Virus record (IMG/VR): IMGVR_UViG_2907227753_000005
Source of the DNA: a virus
Taxonomy: Duplodnaviria > Heunggongvirae > Uroviricota > Caudoviricetes
DNA: 64,000 bases
Strand: one strand, 5' to 3'
Positions 3,086-36,730 of this stretch are shown here, piece by piece. A program made the translations under genes and the position numbers. Under the pieces are notes generated by a model, which saw only the letters and a list, made by a program, of their open reading frames with translations, did no database searches and was not told the origin of the DNA. The stretch's first letter is position 1, and each line of letters starts with the position of its first letter.

Positions 3086-3529
3086 CTATATACGATTCAC
3101 GCTCGTTCCAGTTAAGCGTCCTTCATCATCATAGTTTAGACCGATATGATAAGTGAGTACCGACTCGCCGCTTGCATCGAAAGTCCTTGAAGTCACTTGT
3201 GTCAAACGAAAGTACTTATAATAGGAATAATCAGGATGCGTGTATCCAACTCCCACAGGAAAACCCGTGTCATCTTCGGAGCCAAACTTCATCCAAATTG
3301 AAACCCTCCACGTTGATTCATAAATCATATCCGCGCCCGTTACCCTCTCGGTATCCATCGGATGTTCCCTAAAAAGAGTAACAGAAGGCTCCCCTTCAAG
3401 AGGGTTGCCTTCTATGTTGTGGATACTGGTATACTTACGAATCTCGCGGTGGATAAGGTCTAACACGGGAAAGACGATATTGTCGTTAACTATGCCCGCC
3501 ATTAAGCCATAACCCCCTTCTTCGACCAC
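3086..3529 (-). CDS. Hypothetical tail module protein (147 aa)
   Basis: Its start overlaps the end of the upstream gene, which is the usual translational coupling in a tail module. Confidence 0.4.
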   Translation of the reverse strand: MVEEGGYGLMAGIVNDNIVFPVLDLIHREIRKYTSIHNIEGNPLEGEPSVTLFREHPMDTERVTGADMIYESTWRVSIWMKFGSEDDTGFPVGVGYTHPDYSYYKYFRLTQVTSRTFDASGESVLTYHIGLNYDDEGRLTGTSVNRI

Positions 3530-6500
3530 ATAAGGTCAATTACTTGAAGCATTCCCGCGTCAACGGAGAAGCTAGTTCTGATTCCTTTAATAGTATAGAC
3601 GGAACGAGTCGTGGTGGTCTTATCTGTCACGAGCACACTGTCTAACACATCGAGCGCAGGATTTGCAGGGATCGAGACTTGGAGAGTTCGGCACATTCGC
3701 TTCATATCGAAGAACGCCTTTTCTGCTACCGTTCTCTTTGCTTGTTTTGTCTTTGCCCAAGGAACAGAGATAACCATTGTTCTGATCTCGCCCTTTAACT
3801 CAAGAAGGATTTCCTTATCAATGAACTGCCCAGGTTTTCCATCAGAGTCAATGACTACAATGTGACTTCTTCCCCGCGACCAGTCGATGGACTTGGTAAT
3901 CGAGATCAGGTTATCGTTCTCGGAGAACTCAGCTACAACTGGTTTGTCATAGTTAATTCTCTCAAGTCGATATGTCCCGTATCTGTCGCAGAAACTTCGG
4001 TATGGAAGTTCTCCAATTACTTCCGAGACAGCTTCAGATACTTTTATGGAATACTGCTCGAAGGTCTTTCCGTACTCCTCAACAAACGGATTGAGCCATC
4101 CATTAGGAGTCAGAATAGAATCTGCGTCCTTAACCTCGAACTCTCCTTCCTTATCGGCAATCGGAACAATGACCCTACCTGTTTTCTGATCGACCTCTAC
4201 AAGGTAGGTCTCGTCGATCACGTAGTCAGGGTATGACAAGTCTTCGCTTGTCGCCCGCCACCCGATCAGACCTGCGTGTTTAATGAGGTCAAGAGCTACC
4301 GTGGATTTAACCCAAGCGGGCTTTTCAAATTCCGTAGGCTGTTCTACCGTAGGTGCAGGAGTCGGTGTCGTAGCCGTACTCTCCCAAGCACTTGGATTTG
4401 CCAGTATGTCTTGGTAGTAAGACCATACCTTGTCCACCCAGTTGTCTCTATCCCCACTCCAAACCATGGGAGCAATATCGCCGCCATCGTGGAAGTACAG
4501 TACGTCAGCCTTAGACGAAACTTTCTTCCCTTTGGATGCTAGAGCCTTGGACATACGTTCAGCACCACGCTTCATCTGCTCCTGGATACCTTTGTATTTA
4601 GGGTCACAGTACCCTGCGCTGTAGCATCCATATCCTAGGATGAAGCTCCCGTTTTCTTCCTTACCCATGCCCGCTGTACCCATTACTGTCTCATGCCTAC
4701 AGATAGCAAGAAGGAACTTGTAATCGGGAATGCTATAAGCCGCCGCCTGTGTCTGTGCCGCTTGAATGATTTCGGTCTTCCTGTCGCCGCCCGTAGGCGC
4801 AGGTACAGGGTCGGGAACGTTGTCCACATGATCGACCTCAGGGTACGCCTTCTTCTCCGTGATGACCTTCTCGATTGCCCTCTTGTACATGTCCCTAGCT
4901 GTGATCTCTAGGGTGGACTCTCCATTCATGTCAACCTTATCAATCAGCCCCGTGAACACCCTAATCAGGTGTTGCCCGTACCCCATGTAAATGCGGATAG
5001 GTGTATTCTCACTAAGGACACCAATATGGAACCCATTGGCGAAGTACGACCATGGTGACACCATACCTGCTGTCTCAGGGAAATAAGCAGGGTTGTAATC
5101 AGGCGAGAAAAATCCTCTAGGGTTGGAGACTGAAAGCCTTGCTTCCCTTGCTTCTGCTTCGTACTGGTCATCAACCTCACAGCTAATGATGTTCGGAAGA
5201 ACCTGGGTATCCATATAGACGAAGGAGCCGACCTGCAAGTACTCCGAGTTAGTAACTGTGTTACTGATGAAGTCCTGGTACTCGATCTCCTCCCAGGTTC
5301 CCTTGGAAGGGTCAATCTCAGCTTCAGCTTCGTTCTCTTTAGGTGGTGTTGGTAGGAACTCCTGGATTCGGATGTAGTCGATTGCGAACTTCTTTACAGT
5401 AGGTGGTGCAGGAGGTCCGATCCCGCCAGGGACTGGTGGTGTAACCATCTCCCCACCGTATACGACCTGGACTTTGATCTTCTTGGTTCCCTCAGGGATG
5501 GCGATGTTCTTCAGCTCGGTTACCTTTGTCAGGTCGTACTTACCTTCAAACTTGCTGACGTAGCCATACGCCTTATCGTCCATGAGGATTGAGACCTCAT
5601 CACCAGTCATCATTCCAGTGAAGTTAGTCCCGAAACCAATACTGAACAGCCCTGCGGTCGGCATATTCAGTTTAGTTACGTCAATCTCAAACTCTACCGT
5701 GGCAGAGCTGACACCAAACGTGTAAACCAACTTACCTCCCGAGTCGTACATCGTCCAACCTGAATCAACAGCGGCAAAGCTTCTGAAATTCCAACCAAGG
5801 CTGTAGATGTCCTTCTCATACCAGTTGCGTTTATCGAAGTTCTCACTCAGCTTGACCTCTCCTGGGTAACCAGTCACGAACCCCTCGTCAACTGTTGATT
5901 TACCTAAGGTTTCCGCATCAGAGTAGAGCTTGCGCTCCCTCTTTAGGTACGCTCTAGGATCGACTGCCTTTCCTCCTTCACCCGTCCGAGTGTCTTGGTT
6001 AACTCCCTCCCAAACCTCAAAGTGTAGGTGACGACCTTTACCTGCGGCTCTCTCCGCTTCTGAAACTCGGTGACCATTCGTGTAGACCGCACCAGTATTC
6101 CCAAGCTTACCGATGACCTGTCCCTTAGAAACAATGTCATCCAAGGAGACGTTGATCTCACTCAGGTGGAAGTATTTGGTCATCACTCCACCCGCATGTT
6201 TGATGTTAACAGTGTTACCGCCACCTTCAGTTCTGCTTCGGGTAATGTTAACAACCTTCCCTGCCCACGCCGCCAGGATCGGAGTCCCCATGTCGTCCCA
6301 TAGGTCAATCCCCTTGTGCGTACGACCGCCCGAACGAGCCGCACCGAAGTTATCGGTGACCGTAATGGTTTCAAACGTCTTGCCTTGTACAGGGAAGGTA
6401 ATGTCGTCTCCATTAGCAGATGTCTCACCGTCATATACGCCATCCGTGGATTCCGCGACCCACACTTTCTTGACGGACGTGATCTCCTCAACCTCTGTGG

Positions 6501-6639
6501 TGATATAACGGAACTCCTCTGTCCGTCCAGGGATGAACGCAAGTCTATCAACCTCAACTCTTACATTGGGCAAAGCCCTCTCTCCGAGCTTCAGCCGTTG
6601 AGAGAGAACTTTTAGAACCTCATCTGAAATTGGAATCAT
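3502..6639 (-). CDS. Tail-associated lysin or tail tip protein (1045 aa) with a peptidase M23 (LytM-type) domain
   Basis: The translation carries the M23 signature GRTHKGIDL...HLHFE(V) flanked by Gly-rich beta segments. Its size and its position after TMP and the Dit-like genes fit a Tal or tail endopeptidase. Confidence 0.7.
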   Translation of the reverse strand: MIPISDEVLKVLSQRLKLGERALPNVRVEVDRLAFIPGRTEEFRYITTEVEEITSVKKVWVAESTDGVYDGETSANGDDITFPVQGKTFETITVTDNFGAARSGGRTHKGIDLWDDMGTPILAAWAGKVVNITRSRTEGGGNTVNIKHAGGVMTKYFHLSEINVSLDDIVSKGQVIGKLGNTGAVYTNGHRVSEAERAAGKGRHLHFEVWEGVNQDTRTGEGGKAVDPRAYLKRERKLYSDAETLGKSTVDEGFVTGYPGEVKLSENFDKRNWYEKDIYSLGWNFRSFAAVDSGWTMYDSGGKLVYTFGVSSATVEFEIDVTKLNMPTAGLFSIGFGTNFTGMMTGDEVSILMDDKAYGYVSKFEGKYDLTKVTELKNIAIPEGTKKIKVQVVYGGEMVTPPVPGGIGPPAPPTVKKFAIDYIRIQEFLPTPPKENEAEAEIDPSKGTWEEIEYQDFISNTVTNSEYLQVGSFVYMDTQVLPNIISCEVDDQYEAEAREARLSVSNPRGFFSPDYNPAYFPETAGMVSPWSYFANGFHIGVLSENTPIRIYMGYGQHLIRVFTGLIDKVDMNGESTLEITARDMYKRAIEKVITEKKAYPEVDHVDNVPDPVPAPTGGDRKTEIIQAAQTQAAAYSIPDYKFLLAICRHETVMGTAGMGKEENGSFILGYGCYSAGYCDPKYKGIQEQMKRGAERMSKALASKGKKVSSKADVLYFHDGGDIAPMVWSGDRDNWVDKVWSYYQDILANPSAWESTATTPTPAPTVEQPTEFEKPAWVKSTVALDLIKHAGLIGWRATSEDLSYPDYVIDETYLVEVDQKTGRVIVPIADKEGEFEVKDADSILTPNGWLNPFVEEYGKTFEQYSIKVSEAVSEVIGELPYRSFCDRYGTYRLERINYDKPVVAEFSENDNLISITKSIDWSRGRSHIVVIDSDGKPGQFIDKEILLELKGEIRTMVISVPWAKTKQAKRTVAEKAFFDMKRMCRTLQVSIPANPALDVLDSVLVTDKTTTTRSVYTIKGIRTSFSVDAGMLQVIDLMWSKKGVMA

Positions 6640-6651: not shown

Positions 6652-8055
6652 TTATTTGAATCTCTCAAGTGTCCACTTTCTGAATCTGCTCAAGAAGGTT
6701 ACTGCTTCAGCACGGGTCATTGCGGTATCCCCCAAGAACCAGGTAGTAGGCTCTTGATTACCATTCACGGGTCTACCCATATTCGTCAGTACTGCGGCAC
6801 CGTCTAAGGTCTTGACAATGTTGAAACCTGCAATCAGGGGATCGCCGTTGGAGAAGGTCTCGTCTTCCATCTCCGAAACAGACTGCTTCCACCAGTTGGT
6901 CGCTGAGGATTCAACACGCTCATCCTTGTCTTGGTAGTAGTAAGCAGATGCTCTACCAACATCCTGGAAACGTTCGCTTTCCCCCTTCTTGTAGTAAACC
7001 TTCACCTCATCTCCCTCGTTTAGAGGGTAGTTAAACACTATGGTGTGGTTGTCGATCTCCGTAACAATAGGTGCATACTTAGCAACACCATTCACCTTAA
7101 CGGCAAGCTTGTTCTTTCCCGCAGGGAAGTTACCGTTGAGTCGGAATACCCTCTGCCCATTAAAGGCGATAATGGTTTGGTCAATACCTTTAGTAGGGGC
7201 TTCCATGTCGGTGAACCTAGCGTACAGAACCTTGCGGAGCTTGTTGATGAGGTGGAATGCTTCTCCCCTCGTAATGATTGAGTTAGGGAAGAAACGGTTG
7301 TTGTATGTTGGATTGTCCGTTGTCGCCTTAACGCTCTGACTCATCATCTTGTACACGCCGTTCTCGTAAATCCAGTAATTGAACTTACACGTCACGCCGT
7401 TGAGGTTGAACGGTAGGAACAACGAACCGCCTGGGCTGACACAGTAAACATCCGTTCGGTACCCGATAGCCTTTGTCGCAATTTCAGTAACAGCATCTAC
7501 GTTACCCGCCGACTGTTGCCAAACCTGTTTAGGGATACTAAGCCTACGTAGCGGCTGACCTCCTGCATACAGGTACTCCTGGTGCTTACGGCTGTAAGGG
7601 TCATAGAAGTAAACATCGTTCTTTGGAATGACTGTTCTAGGGAGATCACCCAACCAAGACACGGGAGGTCTTTTCCAGTCCTCGTCCAGGAGTGGTACTC
7701 CGTAGCTACAGAACGCAACGATCTGACCGTTCTTGCATCCTGTATAAAGCTCGACATCCGTACCGCCCGATAAGTTATCTGCGGCAGACTTGTATATGGT
7801 TTGAACTCCGTCAATGAACACGTACAAGGGGTTACCCTCGGACGGTGTAATTTTCTTGGAGAGTTTGAACTTAGACTGACTGGTAACTGCCTTAATCTCC
7901 TCGAAGATGAAAGGCTTACCGCTCTCAAATTGGTTGTATGTCATTCCGTCAACGAAGGCATTTCCGTCTTCGAGATACATATTCGTGGCTTCCATTACAT
8001 CGTTGTAGAACCAGTCACCCTCATTCACGTCAACCCATTTTCGCATTGAAAGCAC
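6652..8055 (-). CDS. Tail protein (467 aa) carrying SLH-like motifs
   Basis: The C-terminus ...TTWFLGDTAMTRAEAVTFLSRF matches the SLH TRAE core. An internal IITRGEAFHLINKL segment resembles a second copy. The gene lies between the Dit-like gene and the tail lysin. Confidence 0.55.
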   Translation of the reverse strand: MLSMRKWVDVNEGDWFYNDVMEATNMYLEDGNAFVDGMTYNQFESGKPFIFEEIKAVTSQSKFKLSKKITPSEGNPLYVFIDGVQTIYKSAADNLSGGTDVELYTGCKNGQIVAFCSYGVPLLDEDWKRPPVSWLGDLPRTVIPKNDVYFYDPYSRKHQEYLYAGGQPLRRLSIPKQVWQQSAGNVDAVTEIATKAIGYRTDVYCVSPGGSLFLPFNLNGVTCKFNYWIYENGVYKMMSQSVKATTDNPTYNNRFFPNSIITRGEAFHLINKLRKVLYARFTDMEAPTKGIDQTIIAFNGQRVFRLNGNFPAGKNKLAVKVNGVAKYAPIVTEIDNHTIVFNYPLNEGDEVKVYYKKGESERFQDVGRASAYYYQDKDERVESSATNWWKQSVSEMEDETFSNGDPLIAGFNIVKTLDGAAVLTNMGRPVNGNQEPTTWFLGDTAMTRAEAVTFLSRFRKWTLERFK

Positions 8056-8094
8056 CTCCTCACTTTAGATTAGACAGAAAAGGAGTAGGTCGCC

Positions 8095-8745
8095 CTACTC
8101 CCTGATGATTCGCTCTATTAACCTTTTGGTTCTCATGAGGAACGTCACGAACTCAGCTCTCGTGATGAAGTCCTCAGGTCTGAAGTACAAGACAGGGGTT
8201 CCGTCAAGTTCAGTAACTACGACAATACCGAGGTTAGCCATATCCTCAATCGCCGTTCTAGCCCAGTGGTCTTTACCTTCAGTGGTCTCAAGGTCTTGGA
8301 ACTGTACAACGCTAGTGGCATCGTACCCGTCCTTTTTGATTAGGGTCATGGTCAGCTCAACCTTGTACCCTTTCTGATCTATGTTTGGGTCTCCTTGATG
8401 GTAGAACACAGGATCAGCCTTGATTGACTCAACCACCCCGAAGTAGATGTTGCCGCGCTCATCATAGAACTTATGAGTCCAACCAACATACATAGAGTAG
8501 TCGCGGAACGCTTCCTTGTCCTTGAACAGCATGTTGAGGATTGCCTTATAGGACGACACCCCCATCTGATGGAAGTGTGATGGAGCATTGATGATCTTGA
8601 TTTCCTTGACCTGGGGTTGAGGAGACGGAGTGGAGTAAGGCTCGATGATCCGAGCCTTTACTTCCACGAACTCCATCCCAGTGTCAACGAACAGTTTGCG
8701 CTTGTACTTATCATTAGCTGAGCCGAACGGGTCACGTTGGGACAT
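8095..8745 (-). CDS. Tail protein (216 aa) with a complete C-terminal SLH domain, in the distal tail protein (Dit) position
   Basis: DHWARTAIEDMANLGIVVVTELDGTPVLYFRPEDFITRAEFVTFLMR fits the SLH consensus (HWA..AI...GI...DG.F.P..ITRAE..L.R). It is the gene immediately after TMP. Confidence 0.55.
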   Translation of the reverse strand: MSQRDPFGSANDKYKRKLFVDTGMEFVEVKARIIEPYSTPSPQPQVKEIKIINAPSHFHQMGVSSYKAILNMLFKDKEAFRDYSMYVGWTHKFYDERGNIYFGVVESIKADPVFYHQGDPNIDQKGYKVELTMTLIKKDGYDATSVVQFQDLETTEGKDHWARTAIEDMANLGIVVVTELDGTPVLYFRPEDFITRAEFVTFLMRTKRLIERIIRE

Positions 8746-8758: not shown

Positions 8759-11700
8759 TTACAGTCCTTTATAGTTACTGCCCATGTTCGCCTTAACATC
8801 ATTAGCGAACTGGTTGACGAGACCGCTGTTGTTCTTCTTGAGTGTTTTCTCAAGAGCAGAGGTCATTTTCTCAACGTCCTTGGTGTCGCCTGTCATGTTG
8901 TCGATGTTTACATGGACAGTGACGTTACCCGCCCCCACCATAACGCTCTTGTGGGTGTTGTTCTTAGTCATGTAGTCGAAGTAATCCATGACTTTGAGAC
9001 CACTTGGCAAGTTGAAGGTCGATTGAGATTGTGAGGTGTTCTTGTTGATCTCAGCAAGGTTCTTGGACTGCTCAACGCCGATGGACTGAAGCTGTTTGAA
9101 GATCGTCATGTACTCATCGGAGTTAGGGTTGAACCCACCAGTTTTCAGGAGAGTGTCCCACTCAGTCTTGAACCCTTCCAATTGTGCGTTCACGTCAGCT
9201 ACTCTTGCCTTCTCAAGTGCCTTGACTTCAGGAGCATCGTCCTTCCCGCCGTTAGCCGCCAGGAGATCGTACATCCTTTTGTCGTAGTCCATTTGAGTAA
9301 GGTCGAGCTGATCGGTCATCTTACGTTCGAGTTCGTCGATAGCAGAGTTCTTGACACCATCAATCTCAAGCTCTGTTTGAGCCTTCTGCGACTTCAGGTT
9401 ATCAAGCTCAGCTCCAACCTTGTCCTTCTCGTCACCGTCAGCCATCAGGTCGTATGTCTCCTGTAGCTTCTTGATCGCTTCATCGAAGAACTTCAGGTTT
9501 TCTCTGAGGTACTGCTCCATGAGATCACGCATTTGCTTAGAGTCCTCACGAACACCGCTAATGAGAAGTCGGGAACGGTTGATTTGATAGGTAGACTCGT
9601 TATGAGTCATGCCCTTGTTCATCTCACCACTGATCTTAGCCATCAACGTGTCTAGGCTCTCATAATCGAGAGTTTGGTTAGCACCGTCAGTTGCAGGATC
9701 AAGCAATCCGTCCTTGTTGGTGTCAAGAGGATGGTACTTGTTCTGCTCCTCCAACTTCTTGTTAAGCTCCATTTGGGCTTCGACCTTGGCTTCAGTGGCT
9801 TCCTGCTCGTAGTTGTACTTACTTGCAAGGGTTTCTTCGACGTACTTACCATCACCATCACGTACAGCCTGGAATCCTTCCCAATAGTCGCCCCAAGAAG
9901 GTGCATTACCTCCAAGCAGATTACTCACTCCGCTGAAGGCACCATCCCAAACGAGGTTAGCCCCTTTCCACCAAGCACCCAAGCCCGAGGATTCCTCCCA
10001 GTCTCGGAAGTTGTTAGCAAGTCCTTCCTTGTTCTCAGCTTGGATACCCTTCTTCTCAGAGTCGGTCATCCCCATTGCAGTCAGTGGGTCGATAGCCGCC
10101 ATCAGAAGGTCTGCCCCTGCCAACGCCGCTCCGATGTACGGGATTGCTTTCAGCGGTCTTGCAAGCTTCAGTCCTTTAGAGAGCGTATTACCAACGCCAC
10201 TAATCTTACCGAGGATTCCATTACCTCCCTTAGCCGCATCAGCCACGTTATCAGCCGCTCCTGCCGCCGCTCTACCTCTACGGACATCCCCTTCAGTAAG
10301 TGGGTTTCCGTCACGGTCGGTCAGAGGTCTGCCGTTAGCATCACGGGCAGGGATGCTGTCTCTAGCCATGTCGATCTCAGACTGACGGATAACATTTCCG
10401 TCAGGGTCACGGAGGATATCACCGTTGTTGTCCCGAGCAGGGGCTTTCTTGTTGAACAGAGAACCCAGACTCTTGGTTTGGAACACGTCCTTGATCTTAG
10501 TGAACACACCACGCTTGCCACCGCCACCGTTAGGAAGCAGATCTTTTGCCAGGAGACCCATCATTGCGTACTCAGCAAGACCCATACCAGTCTGACTTGC
10601 GGCACCTGCGGCACCTACACCCATTTCGTTGACCCCGAGGGCACCCGTGAGGTGGGCACGTTCAAGCTCCTTCATCTTGTTGACATACTTGGTAGCGTCC
10701 AGGGTTCCCTCTCTGAAAGAGTCGTTGAGCTTGTCAACTTCTCTTTTCAGCTTCGAGATGTCATCGTCCGACATTCCTGCTTCCTTACCGATCTTGTTGA
10801 TCTCCGCATCATATCGGGAAGCATCGACCGCCCCCGACTGGAACTCGCGGTTCAAGAAGTTCAGGTTGTTCTTCAGTTCCGTCGAATCCATACCCATGTC
10901 GTCCATTGCCAACGTCAGTGCCTTAGCACGGTTTTGGAGCTGAGTCATTGCCTGACCGTTTTCACCAAGCTCTGTGCTCAAGGCTTCAAGACTGCGTTTC
11001 GTCTTAGCGTCCTGCTCATCGAGGGAACCAAGCTCCTTACGAAGCTGTTCAACCTCTTTGCTCTTGGCTTTAGCAGTGTTGTCTGCTTGGTCACGCTCAG
11101 CGGCATGGAAAGAAGCGGCTGTGGTATCTCCATCAGCAACAGCCTTCTGATAGAGTTCTTGGTGCTGATCTCGTTTAGCTTGCAGTCCGAGAACTTCACC
11201 CTCCTTCTCCACTATCTTGGTGTTCACTTCAGCGCGGCGGGAATTACGGGCTTCCGCACGGCTTTGATGCTGTGCCATCTCCTCTTGAATACCAATACGT
11301 CTAAGGTTCTCCATCCGAGCGTTTTCGTTAAGAGCCATACCATAACTCTCAATCTTACTCGCCTGTTTCTTCTTATCTGCATTGTCAATCGCTTCATTCA
11401 GCTTGCCCCATGCGATTCTGACACCGACACCCGCCATGATTCGAGCGATAAGACCCATCGTGTCAGCAATACCTCCTGCGTTATCTCCGACGATGCGAAG
11501 GAATGCTGTAAGGTATGTCGCTAGGTTGGAGAACTCGCCTTTCAGTTCCTCCCAAGCTTCATAAGTAGCGACCTGCCAGGAGGTTTTAATTTGACTCTGA
11601 CGGAATTTCCAAGTGTCCATCATACCTGCACGGATGTACATGGCAGTGTTCTCGTCAGCCCCTTGGATTTGAGCAACATAAGCATCAATAGACTCCTTGA

Positions 11701-14700
11701 CACTCAGATTGCCATCTCCGTCCTTGTCACTACCTTCCGCATCTCCTGTTACGTGCATTACCTTCTCCATTGTGTGTTGAAGGTCGGCCGTGAACGCAGA
11801 TACCGCCGCCGCACTACCCATGTGCCATTGAGGGAATAGCTTCTGCCACATTTGGATGCGGGACTCATCGTTCATGGTGGCACTTGTCTCAAGGATACTA
11901 GCGAAGATGTCCGAGAAGTCTTTCTGTGAACCGTCTTCGTTGTACGGGTTGAGGTTTCCGTACACTTCAGGGTTAGTAGCCGCCATTGCCGCCAACTCAT
12001 CCCGACCCTTTTTGGTGTAAGGCTTGTCGAGAATCGCTTTCCAGAACGTACCTGATTCCGCACCTGAACGTGCAGTTGCCTGAACGAACATGGAGGAGTA
12101 TGCGATGGAGTGAGCAAGCGCAGTCTCTTTATCCTGATCACCCATGGCGTTACGGAACATAGAACCTGCCTTCTGTTGAGTTGCGATAAGGTCTTCGATC
12201 TTAGCCTGGGAGATGTTCGCCGCCATAATCATCATGTTAGTGACTTTATTGAGGGCGTAACCGCTGATACCCCATTGGGAGGAGATAGCTTCAAAACCCG
12301 TAGCAGTTTTCTCTACGTCTACTTCCTCAATCGAACGAACCTTAGCTACTTCCTTGGCGAAAGCAGTGGCTTCGTAAGGGTTGTCGTACCTACGGGAAGC
12401 GATGTGGTAAGCCAGTCCCACTTCCTCTTGGTCGATACCGTTAAGCAAGGCAATCATCTGAAGGTCTTTAACGGCACCAGTTTTCATGTACTCGTTAACC
12501 TGGGCGGTAGCTGTCTCCACCTCAGTAGCCTTTTGTTGCTCAGTGAGTGTGCCGCCGTACTTCTGCTCCAACATATCCATCGCACCTTCGACCAGTACCT
12601 CACCTAGTCGGGACATGTTCGGAAGCAACTCGGGAGCAGTCACTTCTTCACCATCGACGCTCGTAGTGTAGGTTCCACCCGTTTGCTCAAGGTACTTGAT
12701 TTGGAAGTTCTGATTTGCCTTAGCCAGTTGGTAATCCATCTCCTTAGCCGACTGGAAGGATTCATTCAGGAGCATTGTAGGGTAACCCATGACTGCACCC
12801 GCCGTGATGTAGCGCATCGTGTTGAGTACCGAAGTACCAAACCCTCCAAACGCACTGTTGGCTTGTTGGTTTCTCTTGTCTTGGACAGGGTTACTCATGT
12901 AGTTTCCAAGGATGTCACCCGATCTTCCGAGGTTAGAACCGATGGAACTGGAAGCTCTCAAGGCATTCTGTGTTACCATTTGCAACGCTTCGCTGTGTTT
13001 GAACAGCTCACCCGTAGCTTTGTCAATGGAACCAGTCAGTGTTCTGAGGTTACCTTCAGCATCCCGCATCTTAGCTGTCCAGGTGTTCGTAGCGTTGTTC
13101 ACGTTCAACTGTGTGATCTCGTAGCCTTTGAGAGCATCTACGGTCTTCAGCACAGCGTTCAGTTGCTCCGTGAATACTGCCTTGTCACCTTTCAAGATGT
13201 TGGACTCACCGATCTTCTCGCCCCGCTTCTGCTTCTGAGCTTGCAAAGCCTTCAGCTCTCTGTTGGTCTTCATTAGCTCGTCACGGTACAGACGCGCTTG
13301 TACGATGTCACCATCCGTGATTGCTTTGTCGATCATTTCACCGAGCTTAGCAATCGAGGACACATCTACAAGGTTGTCAAGCTTCAGAGCTTCCAGGTCT
13401 CTACGAAGCTTGATGAGCTTCGTTTGGAAGGACTCGTCTGCCGCCAGTGCGTTGTATCTACGAGCGATCTCTGCCAGTTGGATGTTCAGGGTCTTCATCA
13501 TAGCCTGTACATTAGCCGCATCCGTGTCGTTATTGATTGGAGCCGCTGTTACCGAACCGATACGGGCTTTGTGTGCATCCAGGTCGGATACCAACTTAGC
13601 GTAGTCATCGGAGGATAGCTTACGAAGGTACTTGTCCTTCATCTTATCCATAGCAACCGTTTGGTTGGCATCGTACATTCTGCGATTCAGGTCAACCCCC
13701 GCCAACCGATTAGCAACCTTCTCCTCTGCAATGCGTTGAGCTTGCAGTTCGAGAACACGGTTCAGGGCATCCTTAGCAGGGTTCATCCGAGTAGCATCAG
13801 TGGCTACCGCATTGATGGCGTTCTGTACTGCTTGAATCTCCGCTTGATCGACCTTACCGATCTGACGAATCTTTTCGAGCTTAGCGTTCAGGACATCCAT
13901 CTCACGGGACACTCTGTTATCCTTCAGCACGTTATCCCACGATGTAGCGATCTCCTTCACACGGTTCAGGATTGTCGCCATATCTTCCTTGATGACAGAC
14001 AGGCTTGAGAAGTCCGTGATTGGGCTTCTTACAAGATCGCCTACTCGACCAAGGTGATTGGATACTTGGGACTGAAGGGTAGCGTAGTCTTCATTGGACA
14101 ACTTGTTACGGTACTTGCCTAGGAGCCTGTCAGCCCCTACCCGTTGATTGTCCTCGAACACTCTCAGGCGTTCCTCCATAGCCATCTTGCTGTTAGCGAG
14201 AGACTGCTGACGAACCATTTCCCTCTTAGCTTCGGATTCTGCTTTCGCTTCAGCTCTACGCTGTTCCGCTTGAAGTGCGCGATTATCTCTCACTAGATCG
14301 GCGTAGTAGTCCTTGGCTTGGCTGAACTTCGTAGGGTCAGAGTACGATCCGTTGATGAGGTCTCCCAGGTGAGCGATCTTATTGATAGGTAGTTGGCTGT
14401 TCATGAGAAGTCGGTTCATCTTCTCACTCAGCTTGTCAATCTGCCCTTCCATTCCGCTGACCTTCGCCATTCTGTCGAACCCTTTGGAGATTACGTCAAG
14501 CTCACGGTTCAGCTCACGCATTTCCATCCGAGCGTTGGTGATGTCTTTCTCGTTGATGATGTCGGAGGATGCGAGTCTGTTGACCTTAGCCTGTACCTCG
14601 TTCAGGTAGTTCTCAAGCATAGTGAACTGTTCAGGGTTCAGCTTGTTAAGGAACTTGGTCTTCATACTCTCAACGTTTAATTGAGTGTCGTAGCCATATT

Positions 14701-17700
14701 CCCTCAGCTTACCTTTCATCTCAGTCGCATTCGCTTGAGTCGTGGAACCCATGTTCATCTTGCGGAACTGTTCCACTGTGTATCTCAGAGACAGAGAAGC
14801 ATCCAGGATTGCATCACGCAGGGTTTGGTACGGAGACTGATCTCCAACGCGATGACCTTGTTGGAATCTGCTGACCGCTTCCTGCACACGAGCCAAGTAT
14901 TCCTTGTCGAGGAAGTTATGGAGCTGACCTTTTTGCTCATTGGTCAGGTCACTGTTCTCGAAACGGTTCTTGGTGTTCAGCACCTTGATCTGCGCTTCTC
15001 TCTCCCAACGGTTCATCATGTCGAACTCGTTGTATCCCTTCGGCAACTTGTCTGCTGTTGGGTAACGAGGGTCTACCAAGGCGGTCGATCTCGGGTTACC
15101 TACTAAGGGGTTATTGGCTTCCCCGAATGGGAATGGACGTGGAGCCGCCGCATTCACCGCCGCGCCCGCAGGTGGACGGTACCCGATACTTTGGGTTACT
15201 GGAGGAAGGTTCTTAATTCCGTCAATGGCACCCTTGTAGAATGCGTCCAGGTTCTTGGTCAGCGCTTCAACCATTCTGAACTGAACAGTGTCCATCATCT
15301 CTCCCACACGCCTAACCATTACGTGAACGCTAGTCAGGTCAGGTTGAATATCTACCCTACCAAGAGCTTCACCGTATGCAGAGATCGCGGAAGTCGTGTT
15401 CTTAGCCACAGAGTTATGGAACATGTTCATTACCTGACGAACACCCTCTGTCATTACCTGTCCAGTAGCCTTCTCAAGGGACACTCCCGCCTTGAACGCC
15501 TTCTCCCAATCGGATACTCTGTCGAACCCTTCTGCTGTAGCCAAGGCACGTCTTACATCCTTATGGAGTTGTTTAGGGTTCATGAAGATCGCGTTCGCTC
15601 CATCAGCGATACCACCAACGCCTTCGACCACTTTGTTGGAAGCCATGTGCATCATAGACTGCATGGCTTTCCGCATGTGTGCCATAGGTGCGTCTGCCGC
15701 AACGTTGAGTGGGGTCGCTTCAGGCTTCCAAGCCGCAATGTTTGCCATGACCGCTTCCTCAAGTTTCTTTTGGACGTGAGTGACAGCACCCGTAAGAACC
15801 AGTGGCTCTTTAGCGTCCAGGAAGGTTACGTTACTTTGAGCGATCATACGGTTCAGTTCAGTACTCAGCTTTCCGTGCATTGCTTCGGTTGTTGCGGCAG
15901 TCATTGCGAATGCCCCGAACGCATTGTCTACGGCTTTAGAGAACTCAGTGACCGTCTTCTGAAGCGTGGACTCCATCTCTTGCTTGATACGAGCCTGATC
16001 GTCTTTCGTGAAGGAAGCGAAGCCCTTGGCGTTGATTCCCTCTGCAAGGGAACGGGCATTCTGTGCCGCTTGATTGACGATCAACTTGATAAGCTCCTTG
16101 GACTCTTGAGCCATTACAGCATCGAGCTGAGCAGTGTCTTCCGCAGAAGGTTTTGCACCCGCCCCCTGACGCAGTTGAGCAAGAAGATGTTCTGACTGAG
16201 TGCTAAGGATCGCTTTCAGTGCTGTATTGATCGCAGTAGTAGTGCCTTCGGGCAGAGTTACAGAACCTACGGTACCTGCTTCTCCGTGAGGTACTGCTTT
16301 GAATCCTTGAACCATCTCTTTAATCACATTCTCAATCTCAGCTAGAACGCGAGGACGAAGTTGGTCTACAGGAAGGTCTACTCTAACCTCTCCCAACTTA
16401 GAGGAGTCATATCGGAAAGAGGTTACGTTAGTGATAGCACGAGCGAAGGAGTTAAGGACATCCTTGTTGCTTGCTGTCAGTTGAGCTGTCATCTTATCCA
16501 AGGACTCCTGGGAATCCACGAGCATCTTAGCTCTCATCTGCTTAGACCACTCGTTGAAGTGGGCGATGATGAGGTTGAAGTCGATGCCCAGGTTTGCTTG
16601 GGACAGGTTCTTCACTGCACTCTCAGCAGATGCAATCAGAAGCTCCTGCACTCCCTTGATACTAGCAACCCATTTGTTTGTTTCTGCCGAGCCTTTAGTG
16701 GATGCGCCCGAGGATGGGTCGATACCAAGACGAGCCGCTAATCCAGTCACGATACCGTTGATCTCAGCCTGGATGTGGTTGTTAACGATGTGACCTACAT
16801 TGTCGAGGGTAGCCTTGTAGTTGGCGTACTCCTTAGTTCCCACAGGGATAGTCTTGATCTCCTCACCAACAGAAGTGATAAGAGAACCGACCTTATCGAC
16901 AACAGTAGTTCTAAGCTCTTGAATCTTACCCATTACAGCAGTAAGCTCTTTGCTTGTACCGTTCAATTTCAGACCTTTCAATTCAGCATCGAGCTGAGTG
17001 ATCTGAGCCACAGTAGTCTCCATAGCCGCACGGAAGTTCATCATCCCCTTGTCCAGGTTAGGTAGCTTCTTCAGCTCATCCAGGTTAACGTTCAGGAGAT
17101 GTTTGTCGATGTCTCCAATGGCTTCCTTGATGCGGGACACAGCCATGTTAAGTCGAGCAGAGTCGATCTGTACTGGTTGGATATTACCGATGGTGATGTT
17201 CTTAGGATCACTGATGTGTTTCATGAACTCCGTAGACACGGAAGTCATTAGCGTTTTCAGGTGCTCCTCGCCCACCTCGAACTTCATAGGCTTAGGAACC
17301 TTTGCAAGCGTACCGTCCTTCATCTCCTTCGTAGCAGTACCCCACGCAAAGGACATGCGGTTGGTGATTGCCGCTTGAAGTTCAGTATTGAATCTGTTTT
17401 GCAGTTCACGGAATCCGTACTCGGAGAACACGAAAGGCTTGACGTTCCCTACTTTGATGGAGGACTGGTCAATGGCTTCCTTGATCTTGGTACGTACTTC
17501 AGAAGTCATGCTACTCCACTTCTTCTGAGTCAGATTAATAGACAGTGGTGCTAGGTCTCCTTCGATGGTAACCTTACCGCTAGTCAACTTAGAAGCGATA
17601 GCAGACTCTACCGCAGATTGAATGTTCTTTGCATTGAGCTTCAGGTTAGAACCGTCTTTGATCTCTCCAACCGCTTTGGCGATCTTGTCACCAATAGCGA

Positions 17701-17911
17701 GGTTCATACGCTCTGTATCGTTAGCAACTTTGTGAACAGCGTCCGAGAGGGTATTAAAAGATGTCCCGAGCTTTGAAACCTCACCCGCGAACTCTCCCGT
17801 CTTAGTAACGGACTGTCCAAAGTCCATTAAAATCTCAGTTGTTAATGAGTGTTTTTGCCCTTGAGTTTCAGCCATTACGATCACCGTCCTCATAAATAAA
17901 TCCCGTTCCAC
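8759..17911 (-). CDS. Tail tape measure protein (3050 aa)
   Basis: Very large, low-complexity, alpha-helical and coiled-coil-rich ORF. It has Gly-rich central segments and sits after the two chaperone ORFs. Every plus-strand ORF over this interval is an antisense artefact. Confidence 0.85.
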   Translation of the reverse strand: MERDLFMRTVIVMAETQGQKHSLTTEILMDFGQSVTKTGEFAGEVSKLGTSFNTLSDAVHKVANDTERMNLAIGDKIAKAVGEIKDGSNLKLNAKNIQSAVESAIASKLTSGKVTIEGDLAPLSINLTQKKWSSMTSEVRTKIKEAIDQSSIKVGNVKPFVFSEYGFRELQNRFNTELQAAITNRMSFAWGTATKEMKDGTLAKVPKPMKFEVGEEHLKTLMTSVSTEFMKHISDPKNITIGNIQPVQIDSARLNMAVSRIKEAIGDIDKHLLNVNLDELKKLPNLDKGMMNFRAAMETTVAQITQLDAELKGLKLNGTSKELTAVMGKIQELRTTVVDKVGSLITSVGEEIKTIPVGTKEYANYKATLDNVGHIVNNHIQAEINGIVTGLAARLGIDPSSGASTKGSAETNKWVASIKGVQELLIASAESAVKNLSQANLGIDFNLIIAHFNEWSKQMRAKMLVDSQESLDKMTAQLTASNKDVLNSFARAITNVTSFRYDSSKLGEVRVDLPVDQLRPRVLAEIENVIKEMVQGFKAVPHGEAGTVGSVTLPEGTTTAINTALKAILSTQSEHLLAQLRQGAGAKPSAEDTAQLDAVMAQESKELIKLIVNQAAQNARSLAEGINAKGFASFTKDDQARIKQEMESTLQKTVTEFSKAVDNAFGAFAMTAATTEAMHGKLSTELNRMIAQSNVTFLDAKEPLVLTGAVTHVQKKLEEAVMANIAAWKPEATPLNVAADAPMAHMRKAMQSMMHMASNKVVEGVGGIADGANAIFMNPKQLHKDVRRALATAEGFDRVSDWEKAFKAGVSLEKATGQVMTEGVRQVMNMFHNSVAKNTTSAISAYGEALGRVDIQPDLTSVHVMVRRVGEMMDTVQFRMVEALTKNLDAFYKGAIDGIKNLPPVTQSIGYRPPAGAAVNAAAPRPFPFGEANNPLVGNPRSTALVDPRYPTADKLPKGYNEFDMMNRWEREAQIKVLNTKNRFENSDLTNEQKGQLHNFLDKEYLARVQEAVSRFQQGHRVGDQSPYQTLRDAILDASLSLRYTVEQFRKMNMGSTTQANATEMKGKLREYGYDTQLNVESMKTKFLNKLNPEQFTMLENYLNEVQAKVNRLASSDIINEKDITNARMEMRELNRELDVISKGFDRMAKVSGMEGQIDKLSEKMNRLLMNSQLPINKIAHLGDLINGSYSDPTKFSQAKDYYADLVRDNRALQAEQRRAEAKAESEAKREMVRQQSLANSKMAMEERLRVFEDNQRVGADRLLGKYRNKLSNEDYATLQSQVSNHLGRVGDLVRSPITDFSSLSVIKEDMATILNRVKEIATSWDNVLKDNRVSREMDVLNAKLEKIRQIGKVDQAEIQAVQNAINAVATDATRMNPAKDALNRVLELQAQRIAEEKVANRLAGVDLNRRMYDANQTVAMDKMKDKYLRKLSSDDYAKLVSDLDAHKARIGSVTAAPINNDTDAANVQAMMKTLNIQLAEIARRYNALAADESFQTKLIKLRRDLEALKLDNLVDVSSIAKLGEMIDKAITDGDIVQARLYRDELMKTNRELKALQAQKQKRGEKIGESNILKGDKAVFTEQLNAVLKTVDALKGYEITQLNVNNATNTWTAKMRDAEGNLRTLTGSIDKATGELFKHSEALQMVTQNALRASSSIGSNLGRSGDILGNYMSNPVQDKRNQQANSAFGGFGTSVLNTMRYITAGAVMGYPTMLLNESFQSAKEMDYQLAKANQNFQIKYLEQTGGTYTTSVDGEEVTAPELLPNMSRLGEVLVEGAMDMLEQKYGGTLTEQQKATEVETATAQVNEYMKTGAVKDLQMIALLNGIDQEEVGLAYHIASRRYDNPYEATAFAKEVAKVRSIEEVDVEKTATGFEAISSQWGISGYALNKVTNMMIMAANISQAKIEDLIATQQKAGSMFRNAMGDQDKETALAHSIAYSSMFVQATARSGAESGTFWKAILDKPYTKKGRDELAAMAATNPEVYGNLNPYNEDGSQKDFSDIFASILETSATMNDESRIQMWQKLFPQWHMGSAAAVSAFTADLQHTMEKVMHVTGDAEGSDKDGDGNLSVKESIDAYVAQIQGADENTAMYIRAGMMDTWKFRQSQIKTSWQVATYEAWEELKGEFSNLATYLTAFLRIVGDNAGGIADTMGLIARIMAGVGVRIAWGKLNEAIDNADKKKQASKIESYGMALNENARMENLRRIGIQEEMAQHQSRAEARNSRRAEVNTKIVEKEGEVLGLQAKRDQHQELYQKAVADGDTTAASFHAAERDQADNTAKAKSKEVEQLRKELGSLDEQDAKTKRSLEALSTELGENGQAMTQLQNRAKALTLAMDDMGMDSTELKNNLNFLNREFQSGAVDASRYDAEINKIGKEAGMSDDDISKLKREVDKLNDSFREGTLDATKYVNKMKELERAHLTGALGVNEMGVGAAGAASQTGMGLAEYAMMGLLAKDLLPNGGGGKRGVFTKIKDVFQTKSLGSLFNKKAPARDNNGDILRDPDGNVIRQSEIDMARDSIPARDANGRPLTDRDGNPLTEGDVRRGRAAAGAADNVADAAKGGNGILGKISGVGNTLSKGLKLARPLKAIPYIGAALAGADLLMAAIDPLTAMGMTDSEKKGIQAENKEGLANNFRDWEESSGLGAWWKGANLVWDGAFSGVSNLLGGNAPSWGDYWEGFQAVRDGDGKYVEETLASKYNYEQEATEAKVEAQMELNKKLEEQNKYHPLDTNKDGLLDPATDGANQTLDYESLDTLMAKISGEMNKGMTHNESTYQINRSRLLISGVREDSKQMRDLMEQYLRENLKFFDEAIKKLQETYDLMADGDEKDKVGAELDNLKSQKAQTELEIDGVKNSAIDELERKMTDQLDLTQMDYDKRMYDLLAANGGKDDAPEVKALEKARVADVNAQLEGFKTEWDTLLKTGGFNPNSDEYMTIFKQLQSIGVEQSKNLAEINKNTSQSQSTFNLPSGLKVMDYFDYMTKNNTHKSVMVGAGNVTVHVNIDNMTGDTKDVEKMTSALEKTLKKNNSGLVNQFANDVKANMGSNYKGL

Positions 17912-34186: not shown

Positions 34187-35035
34187 ATGAAGAACAACCG
34201 TGGATTATTCATTGGAGGAGCAACAGTAGTAGGATTGGCGGTCATCGGTACCTTGATCTATCTGTTGCTGTGCTTGACGACTATCGCACCAGGGTATGTA
34301 GGTGTGGTTTATGACCGCTCGGGCGGCTTGGAGAAGGAGACACTTCCTCCTGGTTGGCACTTGGTAAGTCCTACGAAGAAGGTAACTGAGTATCCGATCA
34401 GTACGGAGACTGTCCACTACGAAGGTGACAAAGCGTTCAGCATTGCTACTAAGGACGGTAAGGTTGTCAAAGCCGAGCTGATGTACTCCTACCATATGGA
34501 TGAGAAGCGTATCCCTGATGTGTTCGCTAAGTTCCGTGGGCGTACTGACAGTGAGATCGAATCGACTTATATGAAAGATCGCCTGTCAGCAATGATTCAA
34601 GAGATCACTTCCAACTACGGAGTGCTTGAGGTTTACGGTGACAAGCGTGGGGAGATCAACAACAAGGTGTTCGAGTCCTTCAGAAAAGACTTGGACGCTG
34701 TAGGTATTGAAATCGAGACTTTCAACTTCAGTAAGATCGAACCTGACGCTGAATCTCTGAAGGCTATCCAGTCTTTGGTTGACTCTCAGCTCAAGCTTGA
34801 ACAACTGAGAATTGAGAAAGACCAGGCTCAAGTCACTGCCGAGAAGCAGTTGGTAGTAGCTAACGGTAACGCAAACGCTAAGATTGCGGAAGCACAAGGT
34901 GAAGCGAAAGCTAACGCCGCACTCCAACAGTCGATCACTCCTGAACTTCTGAAGAAGATGGAGATGGAAGCCCGCTTGAAGTGGGGTTGGGTAACTATTC
35001 AAGGTGCCCAGGCTGTTGTGACCGAGAACAAGTAA
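34187..35035 (+). CDS. SPFH/band-7 (prohibitin/HflK-like) membrane protein (282 aa)
   Basis: N-terminal TM helix, then an SPFH-like core and a C-terminal coiled coil (AEKQLVVANGNANAKIAEAQGEAKANA). Confidence 0.7.
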   Translation: MKNNRGLFIGGATVVGLAVIGTLIYLLLCLTTIAPGYVGVVYDRSGGLEKETLPPGWHLVSPTKKVTEYPISTETVHYEGDKAFSIATKDGKVVKAELMYSYHMDEKRIPDVFAKFRGRTDSEIESTYMKDRLSAMIQEITSNYGVLEVYGDKRGEINNKVFESFRKDLDAVGIEIETFNFSKIEPDAESLKAIQSLVDSQLKLEQLRIEKDQAQVTAEKQLVVANGNANAKIAEAQGEAKANAALQQSITPELLKKMEMEARLKWGWVTIQGAQAVVTENK

Positions 35036-35224: not shown

Positions 35225-35965
35225 ATGCTAGGAACCTGGGACTTGATTAAGAACTGGTTCCAAATGGCGGCTAACGGTGAACGCCATGCTTCAGTTCGGT
35301 TCGGGGATGCTTCCAATACCATCCTTGCTCATGATACCGTGCTTACCATGGACTTCATCAAGTCGCATTACGGTTGGATCAGCGACCCGACTTACTGTGG
35401 CATTACCCTTCCTAACGCGAATGCAAGGGACATCATCGTTCACTGCTTGCGGAACGCTGACTACGTAGGTCACCTGACACAGACTGATCACTGGTACTTC
35501 AAGCCACTGTTCGATATGTGCTTGCGATACTACCGAGTGGAGCCGAAGGAGACCTTCTATGCGTTCGAGAACAATTACATTGCTCGGTTCAAGCCGTTCT
35601 ATGACACCTTCAGGACTTTACCAATTTTGCTCTGTGGAGCCAAAGCTGTCCAGTACAAGGAAGTACTAGAACGCCGCTACGGTTTCACTGGAATCGTTGG
35701 TACCGTCGATTGTCCCAACTGGGAAGGGTTACAGAAGGCTACTAAGGACATGGAAGCCCTATATAAGACCAATCCATGGCGACTTGCCCTCGTTTGTGCA
35801 GGTGCTCCTGGCAAAGTACTGGCTGTGAAGGCGAAACTGCTCGGAACAGTGGGTGTAGACTTCGGATCGGGTGCAGATGTAGCCATTCAAGCTGATAAAG
35901 AGGGCTTAGATGCCTGGGATTACAAAGGATTCCCCGATTATTGGGCAGGAAGACCACGAAAATAG
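35225..35965 (+). CDS. Hypothetical protein (246 aa)
   Basis: Clean ORF followed by the GACCCCTTTTGGGGTC-T6 terminator. Confidence 0.5.
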   Translation: MLGTWDLIKNWFQMAANGERHASVRFGDASNTILAHDTVLTMDFIKSHYGWISDPTYCGITLPNANARDIIVHCLRNADYVGHLTQTDHWYFKPLFDMCLRYYRVEPKETFYAFENNYIARFKPFYDTFRTLPILLCGAKAVQYKEVLERRYGFTGIVGTVDCPNWEGLQKATKDMEALYKTNPWRLALVCAGAPGKVLAVKAKLLGTVGVDFGSGADVAIQADKEGLDAWDYKGFPDYWAGRPRK

Positions 35966-36187: not shown

Positions 36188-36261
36188 TGGCAGGGGATGC
36201 AGGAATCGAACCTACGAATCGACATTCAAAGTGTCGTGTCTTGCCACTAAACGAATCCCCG
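36188..36261 (-). tRNA. tRNA-Gln (anticodon UUG)
   Basis: Folded by hand: anticodon arm CGACA-CUUUGAA-UGUCG, T-arm GUAGG-UUCGAUU-CCUGC, U8, encoded CCA. The acceptor has a C1/U72 mismatch. Confidence 0.6.
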
Positions 36262-36262
36262 A

Positions 36263-36336
36263 TGGAGCGAAATGAGGGAGTCGAACCCTCACCGTCTGCT
36301 TGGAAGGCAGAAGTTCTACCATTAAACTAATATCGC
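36263..36336 (-). tRNA. tRNA-Gly (UCC)
   Basis: Anticodon arm UCUGC-CUUCCAA-GCAGA, T-arm GAGGG-UUCGACU-CCCUC, encoded CCA. Confidence 0.65.
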
Positions 36337-36338
36337 AT

Positions 36339-36412
36339 TGGCACAGGCTGATGGAATCGAACCACCGTTAACGGGTTTGGAAGCCGTAGTTCTGCCACTG
36401 AACTAAACCTGC
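36339..36412 (-). tRNA. tRNA-Trp (CCA)
   Basis: Acceptor GCAGGUU/AGCCUGU. Anticodon loop UUCCAAA with a 31-39 mismatch. T-arm GGUGG-UUCGAUU-CCAUC. Confidence 0.5.
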
Positions 36413-36421
36413 ATATTAAGA

Positions 36422-36493
36422 TGGACTGAGATGGAATCGAACCACCGTCTGCGGGATTTCACTCCACCGCTAAGCCACTCAGCTACCAGTCCA
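36422..36493 (-). tRNA. tRNA-Phe (GAA)
   Basis: Perfect 7-bp acceptor UGGACUG/CAGUCCA. Anticodon loop GUGAAAU. T-arm GGUGG-UUCGAUU-CCAUC. CCA is not encoded. Confidence 0.5.
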
Positions 36494-36495
36494 TA

Positions 36496-36569
36496 TGGGG
36501 TGACGGACGGAATCGAACCGTGGACTCCTGATTCACAGTCAGGCATGTTACCACTACACTATCGTCACC
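36496..36569 (-). tRNA. tRNA-His (GUG)
   Basis: Acceptor GGUGACG/CGUCACC with discriminator C. Anticodon arm CCUGA-CUGUGAA-UCAGG. Confidence 0.55.
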
Positions 36570-36570
36570 A

Positions 36571-36647: not shown

Positions 36648-36648
36648 T

Positions 36649-36728: not shown

Positions 36729-36730
36729 AT

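Follow-up and report, generated by a model that had tools for sequence, protein, structure and literature searches.

S-layer homology (SLH; Pfam PF00395, PROSITE PS51272) modules work as trimers of units, in which three core helices lie together in a bundle and each ligand groove combines Arg43 from one unit with the Gly29 loop of the following unit and Trp13 of the remaining one (PMC6081394). Trimers whose units come from separate chains are described for OmpM (PMC10628300) and for LysBT1 (PMC12285257), an SLH-bearing endolysin presented in 2025 as the first of its kind. Here we analyse a 64,000-nucleotide stretch of DNA (the window) from a tailed phage (Caudoviricetes; IMG/VR record IMGVR_UViG_2907227753_000005) and describe two adjacent genes, located directly downstream of the tape measure gene, whose products of 216 and 467 amino acids we call p216 and p467. 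The window is a portion of a ~120-kb siphovirus or prophage of Paenibacillus that is like Brevibacillus phage Jenst, which is a siphovirus with a 286-nm tail by electron microscopy (PMC4909266).

A first-pass annotation, made from the sequence alone, had assigned SLH domains to both proteins at positions 6652-8745, and we confirmed the coordinates, the gene context and all the motifs that it quoted. Its view that SLH is rarely, if ever, documented on phage structural proteins also stands. Full-text searching of the literature turned up no description of SLH units in phage tails or baseplates, and the term SLH was absent from the siphophage adhesion-device papers listed, save for one review, where it is used for host proteins only. 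Among sequenced phages SLH is rare, as a canonical three-SLH query matches 5 of 50,697 records. The label itself is already present in NCBI annotation, both on p216 and on its Jenst homologue gp155. The annotation of gp155 (L001 14001-14621) is inconsistent, being an SLH domain-containing protein in RefSeq and glycoside hydrolase family 18 (GH18) in GenBank, and the neighbouring gp154 is annotated as hypothetical.

Results

p216 is a distal tail protein ending in one SLH unit

The C-terminus of p216 is a genuine SLH unit, as had been proposed. In the profile search suggested by the first-pass annotation p216 scored 26.2 bits against Pfam SLH (PF00395; gathering cutoff 20.8; E 8e-6) over residues 159-199, above the curated threshold, and a precomputed PF00395 match is present in most of its homologues. 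A profile of 30 p216-family sequences matched the SLH structures of Sap (6bt4 and 3pyw; E 2e-5) and, at E 3e-3, 8bz2, a single-SLH protein whose entry holds three chains. In the reverse test, a hidden Markov model built from the p216 C-terminus found the canonical three-SLH protein encoded elsewhere in the window at E 6e-17. A single-sequence search of solved structures with p216 returned nothing, and the Pfam scan gave SLH only, with no match to GH18.

Structure prediction, which had been suggested as a further check, agrees with the profiles. The AF2 models are single chains of p216 and p467, and that of p216 (pLDDT 74.7) shows a beta domain at residues 18-137, a linker at 140-143 where pLDDT drops below 50, and helices at 163-171 and 196-215. 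The N-terminal domain folds as the tube-like beta-sandwich ring domain of a distal tail protein (Dit), and the gene occupies the position of a Dit gene, directly 3' of the tape measure gene in a tail module that has no sheath gene, an order that is identical in Jenst. Residues 146-216 consist of the two helices of the SLH unit and contain no beta domain, so that the galectin-like domain of classical and evolved Dits is missing. We conclude that p216 is a Dit with a single SLH unit on a flexible linker in place of the usual C-terminal galectin-type domain. If Dit is a hexamer here, p216 would putatively assemble at the virion's tail tip as a ring of six.

It is conceivable that p216 and p467 serve the cell surface or lysogenic conversion and are encoded in the tail operon by chance, and yet we find this scarcely credible, given the Dit fold of p216 and the conserved place of the two genes, after the tape measure gene and ahead of that for the M23 tail lysin. 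Moreover, neither protein has a signal peptide. In this they are unlike the real secreted SLH protein of the phage, which differs markedly from them and is encoded elsewhere, and the lack of a signal peptide fits delivery on the virion.

p467 carries two SLH units, one of them split

Translation of p467 starts at the ATG at 8046, whose ribosome-binding site, GAGGAGG, is 8 nt upstream and takes in the GTG at 8055. The protein is therefore 464 residues long rather than 467, and public gene calls agree.

The claim that p467 also ends in an SLH domain held in part. The single sequence falls below the Pfam SLH threshold (10.4 bits, E 0.66), and its weak match covers the internal motif only, with no stretch at the C-terminus; weak matches were found in 17 of 25 family members (best E 8e-5). 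In contrast, profile-profile comparison and fold both recover a C-terminal unit, here termed unit B. The p467 family profile matches the p216 SLH in its C-terminus at 95% probability (E 3.8e-8), with an insertion of ~25 residues, and the C-terminal sub-alignment compared with the p216 SLH by hhalign gives E 2.8e-11.

Rather than one unit, p467 holds two. When sub-alignments were compared by hhalign, the N-terminal piece of p467 matched the first half of the p216 SLH (81% probability, E 1.3e-5) and an internal piece matched the second half (96% probability, E 1.5e-9). Spliced together, the two pieces matched the whole p216 SLH at E 3e-12 and the C-terminal unit of p467 itself at E 2.4e-15; the inserted regions gave no match to SLH (probability <1%). 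Because of these half-by-half matches we read the internal motif as the second half of a split SLH unit (unit A) that has the N-terminus of the protein as its first half, with ~205 residues between the two. The internal motif noted in the first-pass annotation is thus present but is not a stray one. Unit A does not form a contiguous helix-loop-helix of ~55 residues and is a non-canonical, permuted or interrupted, variant. A candidate for a third, cryptic SLH half in p467 (W176 to helix 183-194 to I-G-Y) was rejected, as it gave no hhalign signal (probability 0.3%).

In the family alignment the N-terminal element reads WVDV..GDWFY..V.EA...LEDG..FV.G, the internal element FFPNA.ITRAEAF.LI.RLRK and the C-terminal element WW...V..ME....G..LI.G ... 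F.P...LTRAEAVTFLNRFRKW. The units were seen only by sub-profiles and by fold comparison, as the whole-protein family profile missed the SLH structures and a single-sequence search of solved structures with p467 gave a chance match only. In the AF2 model (pLDDT 89, pTM 0.76) the helices at 14-21, 260-278, 387-393 and 445-463 coincide with the SLH elements, and beta domains at 46-240 and 287-380 lie between them. The predicted structure superposes on the SLH trimer of Sap over 114 residues and on that of SpaA over 108, which amounts to two of the three units. The picture of two independent C-terminal SLH domains, one on each protein, is accordingly to be replaced: the pair carries 1 + 2 units, the number needed for one SLH trimer, and only one of the two units of p467 is C-terminal.

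One of the inserted domains of p467 has the fold of a T7 gp17-type fibre or tailspike anchor or adaptor, as judged by a fold comparison that gives no aligned ranges. The resemblance is at the level of the fold only, since a sequence match to PF03906, the N-terminal domain of T7 gp17-type tail fibres, was found in only 2 of the 25 family members (best E 0.076). For the second beta domain and the longer variants of the family, Pfam gave nothing but DUF6273 in one variant of 1122 amino acids. The second beta domain is a mobile module, often repeated, that occurs in many unrelated large proteins, with up to 14 matched stretches in the 3311-residue protein P0181. It is also present in Moorella phage MTATph1, ~2 kb from a gene annotated as an endolysin that matches the SLH query.

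The binding triad, the unit layout and the gene pair are conserved

The residues that line the grooves of SLH trimers (SLH-Trp13, the GIIxG motif with SLH-Gly29, and the TRAE motif with SLH-Arg43; PMC6081394) are present in all three units, and we followed them through 30 p216-family and 25 p467-family sequences. Arg43 is invariant, in 30/30 sequences of p216 and 25/25 of both unit A and unit B (R196, R260 and R445, respectively). Gly29 is found in 30/30 p216 sequences (G182), in 22/25 of unit A and in 25/25 of unit B (G407), and Trp13 in 24/30 of p216 (W161), in all 25 of unit A (W12) and in 22/25 of unit B, where the remaining sequences have another aromatic residue. Unit A has two further invariant positions, D6 and E262 (25/25 each). 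The spacing of GIIxG is lengthened by 1-5 residues in the phage units. The core helices of all three units are 19-20 residues long in the models, and from our reading of the alignments they share a [ND]-R-x-[RK]-[RK] extension.

The genes for p216 and p467 are adjacent and on the same strand in 47/47 related loci with downstream sequence, down to 32% identity; in one of these loci another gene is inserted between the Dit-SLH gene and that of the partner. The 47 loci comprise Jenst, three very divergent loci and 43 loci from IMG/VR, and in every one the pair keeps its place, with the tape measure gene on one side and that of the M23 tail lysin on the other. The layout of the partner is likewise invariant among full-length partners: residues 1-45 hold the first half of unit A, the second half lies in the middle of the protein and unit B occupies the extreme C-terminus. 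The inserted cargo alone varies, in proteins of 345 to 1122 amino acids. The statements on layout and cargo rest on a scan of ~95 family proteins, including 64 clusters with E below 1e-30.

The first-pass annotation had also suggested an SLH module borrowed from the host. If so, the event was not a recent one: the tail units have diverged strongly, with Pfam scores of 26 bits or less, and are fixed across a lineage that infects several genera of Bacillales, so that any capture of SLH was ancient.

Programmed read-through from p216 into p467 was considered and rejected. The two are in the same frame, but two in-frame stops and a strong ribosome-binding site before the ATG separate them, and the Jenst genes are in different frames. 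The junction also holds a terminator-like hairpin (Table 1), with a centroid of -16.4 kcal/mol and a z-score of -1.7. A hairpin followed by a T-run, of other stem sequence and with the pairing kept, stands at the same place in the long-form relatives L003, L012-L015, L018, L020 and L021. Jenst-type loci, with their directly adjoining genes, have no such hairpin. The hairpin may attenuate transcription between the Dit gene and that of its partner.

A possible SLH module assembled from two chains

Because SLH modules work as three units, and p216 has one and p467 two, we propose a trimer formed across the two chains. p216 terminates with a core helix and p467 begins the next unit at residue 3, so that from their sequence the chain termini look as though a three-SLH module had been severed after its first unit. 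The p467 chain starts with the first helix of an SLH unit, exits into the ~205-residue beta domain and returns to complete the unit, then runs through the second beta domain and finally forms the second SLH unit; in the proposed arrangement the single unit of p216 together with these two would make up a complete three-pronged module. The module would attach p467 and the variable domains inserted in it to the Dit ring, at a ratio that is likely 1:1, and if Dit is hexameric up to six modules could be present per tail tip. Through the Trp13/Gly29/Arg43 triad it would bind the pyruvylated N-acetylmannosamine (ManNAc) epitope of the host secondary cell-wall polymer (SCWP), and the tail tip would thereby be held on the wall beside the M23 peptidase of p1045, the product of the following gene. 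That one unit of p216 and two of p467 assemble into a single SLH module on the Dit ring, which both mounts p467 and binds pyruvylated SCWP, is the reading we favour, tentatively, at a little under an even chance.

The units could instead act apart. The SLH units of the Dit subunits would then homotrimerise, as in OmpM and LysBT1, and bind the wall without help from p467, whose two units would, for example, pair between copies or form an incomplete module. Homotrimers of single SLH units are known (PMC10628300, PMC12285257), the p216 profile matches the three-chain entry 8bz2, a Dit hexamer could yield two trimers, and the flexible linker at 140-143, ahead of the p216 SLH, would suit such an arrangement. 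We nevertheless regard it as rather improbable. A module of two units would expose one face of the three-helix core, and the 1 + 2 count, the adjacency of the genes in all 47 loci and the invariant two-unit layout of the partner would each have to be a coincidence. In addition, the end of p216 and the start of p467 fall exactly on unit boundaries, and the three core helices are alike in their unusual length and basic extension.

Returning to the cross-chain module, several observations weigh against it. No fusion of Dit and partner was found among the 150 matches listed, where the members of the partner family all begin at residue 1, nor among the ~95 proteins scanned for SLH units. The hairpin at the junction could, in the one clade that has it, mean unequal expression of p216 and p467. 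As for binding, the conserved Arg43, Gly29 and Trp13 also pack the units together (PMC6081394), and since the residues of the triad are structural as well, their conservation does not prove that a ligand is bound. Constant SLH units that carry variable inserts are the usual signature of a virion anchor rather than that of a receptor-binding site, and the large insertions in the groove-lining loops could occlude the grooves. Finally, in a host that bears an S-layer the SCWP sites lie under the S-layer and are largely occupied.

A candidate ligand in the host wall

Outside the structural module the window encodes a second kind of SLH protein, of 262 amino acids. It opens with a classic Sec signal peptide (MKKIALVITLASTLVFGSTAANVQA/SS), and the remainder is made up entirely of three canonical SLH units, with a score of 81.5 bits (E 4e-23) against Pfam SLH. 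Its presence implies that an SLH ligand is displayed by the host wall. We infer binding of SCWP by the tail module from the conservation of the triad, and the secreted protein lends it indirect support.

The serious rival is a joint that is purely structural, in which the cross-chain SLH bundle is a plug and socket that seats p467 on the Dit ring, the grooves bind nothing and recognition is left to the inserted beta domains and to downstream fibres. In the partner family it is the SLH ends that stay invariant, while the number of inserted domains ranges from none to several, and one of these domains has the T7 gp17-type anchor or adaptor fold; Arg43 threads beneath the loop of the neighbouring unit, a packing role (PMC6081394), and the insertions sit within the loops that line the grooves. 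On the other hand, the whole triad, including the stacking platform of Trp13 and the Gly29 that allows a ligand-induced backbone flip, is kept in three units at 32-45% identity, whereas the non-functional grooves of the S-layer proteins SpaA and SlhA have lost residues of the triad (PMC6081394). Given that the host wall presents an SLH ligand, an exposed and intact module would be expected to bind it. We consider the purely structural joint unlikely on balance.

Should the module bind the wall, its ligand may be other than pyruvylated SCWP, for instance polyamine-modified peptidoglycan, as for OmpM of Negativicutes, or an S-layer glycan, as proposed for LysBT1. More than one class of ligand is known for SLH units (PMC10628300), the cell binding of the LysBT1 SLH did not fit SCWP alone (PMC12285257), and the phage units are strongly diverged and have extra insertions. 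We give this a slim chance, as the arginine of TRAE, which salt-bridges the pyruvate group, is invariant in the three units and the motif is TRAE (TRGE in some unit A sequences, including that of the window) rather than the TRYE linked to polyamine binding in the OmpM paper (PMC10628300). In addition, pyruvylated SCWP is the ligand documented for monoderm Bacillales, to which the hosts belong.

The 262-residue protein could be a competitor for wall sites or a superinfection exclusion factor, and is possibly related to the tail SLH system. A protective role has been suggested for an early SLH protein of cyanophage S-PM2 (PMC2984593). A bolder extension, which we think doubtful, is that a wall anchor was split and is reassembled on the virion, where it would serve both as the joint for a variable receptor platform and as a multivalent binder of pyruvylated SCWP beneath the S-layer, and that the three-SLH protein secreted from a lysogen would keep superinfecting relatives out by competition for these wall sites. 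The position of the 262-residue protein's gene is typical of accessory prophage genes, and a 72%-identical copy is present, with the same neighbouring gene, in a contig of Paenibacillus thiaminolyticus (L010).

Locus and element

On the minus strand the order is a 3050-residue ORF followed by those for p216, p467 and p1045 and then by smaller ORFs (Table 1). PF10145 (PhageMin_Tail) is found on the 3038-3044-residue products of identical public loci, and since this is the same gene, the 3050-residue ORF is that of the tape measure protein. The M23 region of p1045 matches PF01551 (E 3e-23) and lysostaphin/M23 entries in the PDB, and its C-terminus matches PHROG tail proteins. Genes for terminase, portal, major head protein and a 289-residue virion protein lie upstream. 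As no sheath gene is present in the structural module of the window, the module is of the siphovirus type.

Table 1. Coordinates of the features discussed, in the numbering of the window
Feature	Position	Strand	Details
Tape measure protein, ORF	8759..17911	(-)	3050 aa (amino acids) as listed; 3038-3044 aa in public gene calls
p216, 216-aa ORF	8095..8745	(-)	
p216 residues 1-145, Dit ring domain	8311..8745	(-)	
p216 residues 146-216 + stop, SLH unit 1	8095..8310	(-)	W161; G173 to G182 (extended GIIxG motif); T195-R196-A-E; core helix 196-215
Terminator-like hairpin	8080..8103	(-)	10-bp stem, GCGA loop, T-rich tail; overlaps p216 stop codon; followed by GAGGAGG ribosome-binding site of p467
p467, 467-aa ORF	6652..8055	(-)	
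p467 residues 3-40, SLH unit A first half	7927..8040	(-)	V-D, W12, helix 14-21, G28...G34; includes WVDVNEGDWFY
p467 residues 41-247, beta-rich domain inserted within SLH unit A (cargo domain 1)	7306..7926	(-)	
p467 residues 248-282, SLH unit A second half	7201..7305	(-)	F252-F253-P254, T259-R260-G-E262, core helix 260-278; contains ITRGEAFHLINKL motif
p467 residues 283-380, second beta domain (cargo domain 2)	6907..7200	(-)	absent from Jenst-type short forms
p467 residues 381-464 + stop, SLH unit B	6652..6906	(-)	W385-W386; G401 to G407; ~25-residue insertion; T444-R445-A-E; core helix 445-463
p1045, 1045-aa ORF, tail-associated cell-wall hydrolase	3502..6639	(-)	M23 (lysostaphin-type) peptidase at ~residues 95-215 + C-terminal tail-protein region
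SPFH/Band-7 protein	34187..35035	(+)	PF01145, E 8e-26
GT-D fold-like glycosyltransferase	35225..35965	(+)	PF22882, E 3e-50
12-tRNA gene cluster	36188..38352	(-)	Gln, Gly, Trp, Phe, His, Ile, Asn, Pro, Asp, Met, Cys, Glu
Secreted 262-aa protein	38964..39752	(+)	Sec signal peptide + three canonical SLH units, nothing else; outside structural module

A nucleotide search against 50,697 phage records gave no match. At the protein level, phage relatives of both p216 and p467 were found only in the Brevibacillus phages Jenst and SecTim467 and in Bacillus phage EZ-2018a, at 26-35% identity, and no homologue of either protein was detected in any other phage record, except for a short match of the second beta domain of p467 in MTATph1. 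The phage lineage in which the tail units are fixed spans Paenibacillus, Brevibacillus, Bacillus, Cohnella, Aneurinibacillus and Peribacillus. The element is mostly found on contigs of ~110-126 kb and sometimes within contigs of 0.57-1.1 Mb, and may be a phage-plasmid, an integrated prophage or both; one relative, of Paenibacillus sp. S-38, is labelled a plasmid.

With ~0.15 nm per residue, the rule quoted in PMC9703825, a tape measure of 3050 residues corresponds to a tail of ~450 nm, and for comparison that of Jenst has 1738 residues for a tail of 286 nm. Tyroviruses, which depend on csaB, have tape measures of a length comparable to that of the window (PMC9703825). A link with them found no support, as no homologue of p216 or p467 was detected in any phage record beyond the three named above, bar the short MTATph1 match. 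Between the structural and late region and the plus-strand genes lies the cluster of 12 tRNA genes, adjoined by the glycosyltransferase and SPFH/Band-7 genes. A phage-borne glycosyltransferase encoded near the secreted SLH protein hints that the prophage modifies the surface of its host.

Discussion

The adhesion modules of phage tails that act on Gram-positive hosts are so far dominated by beta-sandwich carbohydrate-binding modules (CBMs), and if our proposal is correct the SLH unit would join them. Pyruvylated SCWP, the CsaB-dependent epitope that anchors the S-layer, would then be a candidate for a direct phage receptor, and direct loss of this epitope would offer an alternative to loss of the S-layer protein, the usual explanation for the phage resistance of csaB mutants. 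To our knowledge no SLH trimer made of unequal chains, with a whole domain inside one unit, has been described, and such an assembly would show how much the SLH fold tolerates and that it can be used as a protein-protein socket. The modules could also serve as probes for pyruvylated wall polymers and as handles for retargeting phages of Paenibacillus and Brevibacillus, including bee-associated species.

The closest described systems are the direct homologues in Jenst (gp155 and gp154, only 29-35% identical), SecTim467 and EZ-2018a, with the same order of tape measure, Dit-SLH, partner and M23 peptidase. Like p467, gp154 of Jenst keeps the split unit A and unit B, but it has neither the second beta domain nor the insertion in unit B. 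The resemblance of p467 to anchors and adaptors of the T7 gp17 type (T7 gp17, LME-1 orf22, CBA120 TSP4 and the K1E-type adaptors) comes with no significant sequence match, and unlike in those fibres the domain is embedded in a siphovirus protein, inside or beside SLH units.

In evolved Dits (evoDits), beta-sandwich modules are inserted in the galectin domain. The evoDits and CBM-decorated tail proteins of lactococcal skunaviruses, P335 phages and Bacillus phage Deep-Purple (PMC10688798, PMC7291167, PMC9128512) are like p216 in that a Dit following the tape measure gene carries an extra module for a cell-wall glycopolymer, so that adhesion is placed beside the tail lysin. Unlike in an evoDit, the galectin domain of p216 is replaced by an alpha-helical SLH unit which is incomplete alone.

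Sap of B. anthracis (PDB 3PYW, 6BT4) and SpaA of Paenibacillus alvei (PDB 6CWC) share with the phage module the helix-loop-helix units, Trp13, GIIxG/Gly29, TRAE/Arg43 and the number of three. They differ from it in that the phage units are distributed over two polypeptides (1 + 2), one of them being broken by a domain of ~205 residues and another by ~25 residues, and in that the phage proteins lack a signal peptide, have longer and basic core helices and are carried by a phage tail tip rather than by a cell-surface protein. Moreover, Sap and SpaA have degenerate grooves (PMC6081394), whereas the full triad is present in all three phage units. In OmpM/SlpA of diderm Terrabacteria and in LysBT1, as in the module proposed here, a three-pronged SLH is built from separate chains, and LysBT1, from a Brevibacillus thermoruber prophage, is also phage-encoded and from the same bacterial order, although it is a lysis enzyme and not a structural protein of the virion. 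Those assemblies are homotrimers to which each chain contributes one unit, whereas the tail module of the window would be a hetero-assembly of 1 + 2, with one unit supplied by the Dit and two by its partner.

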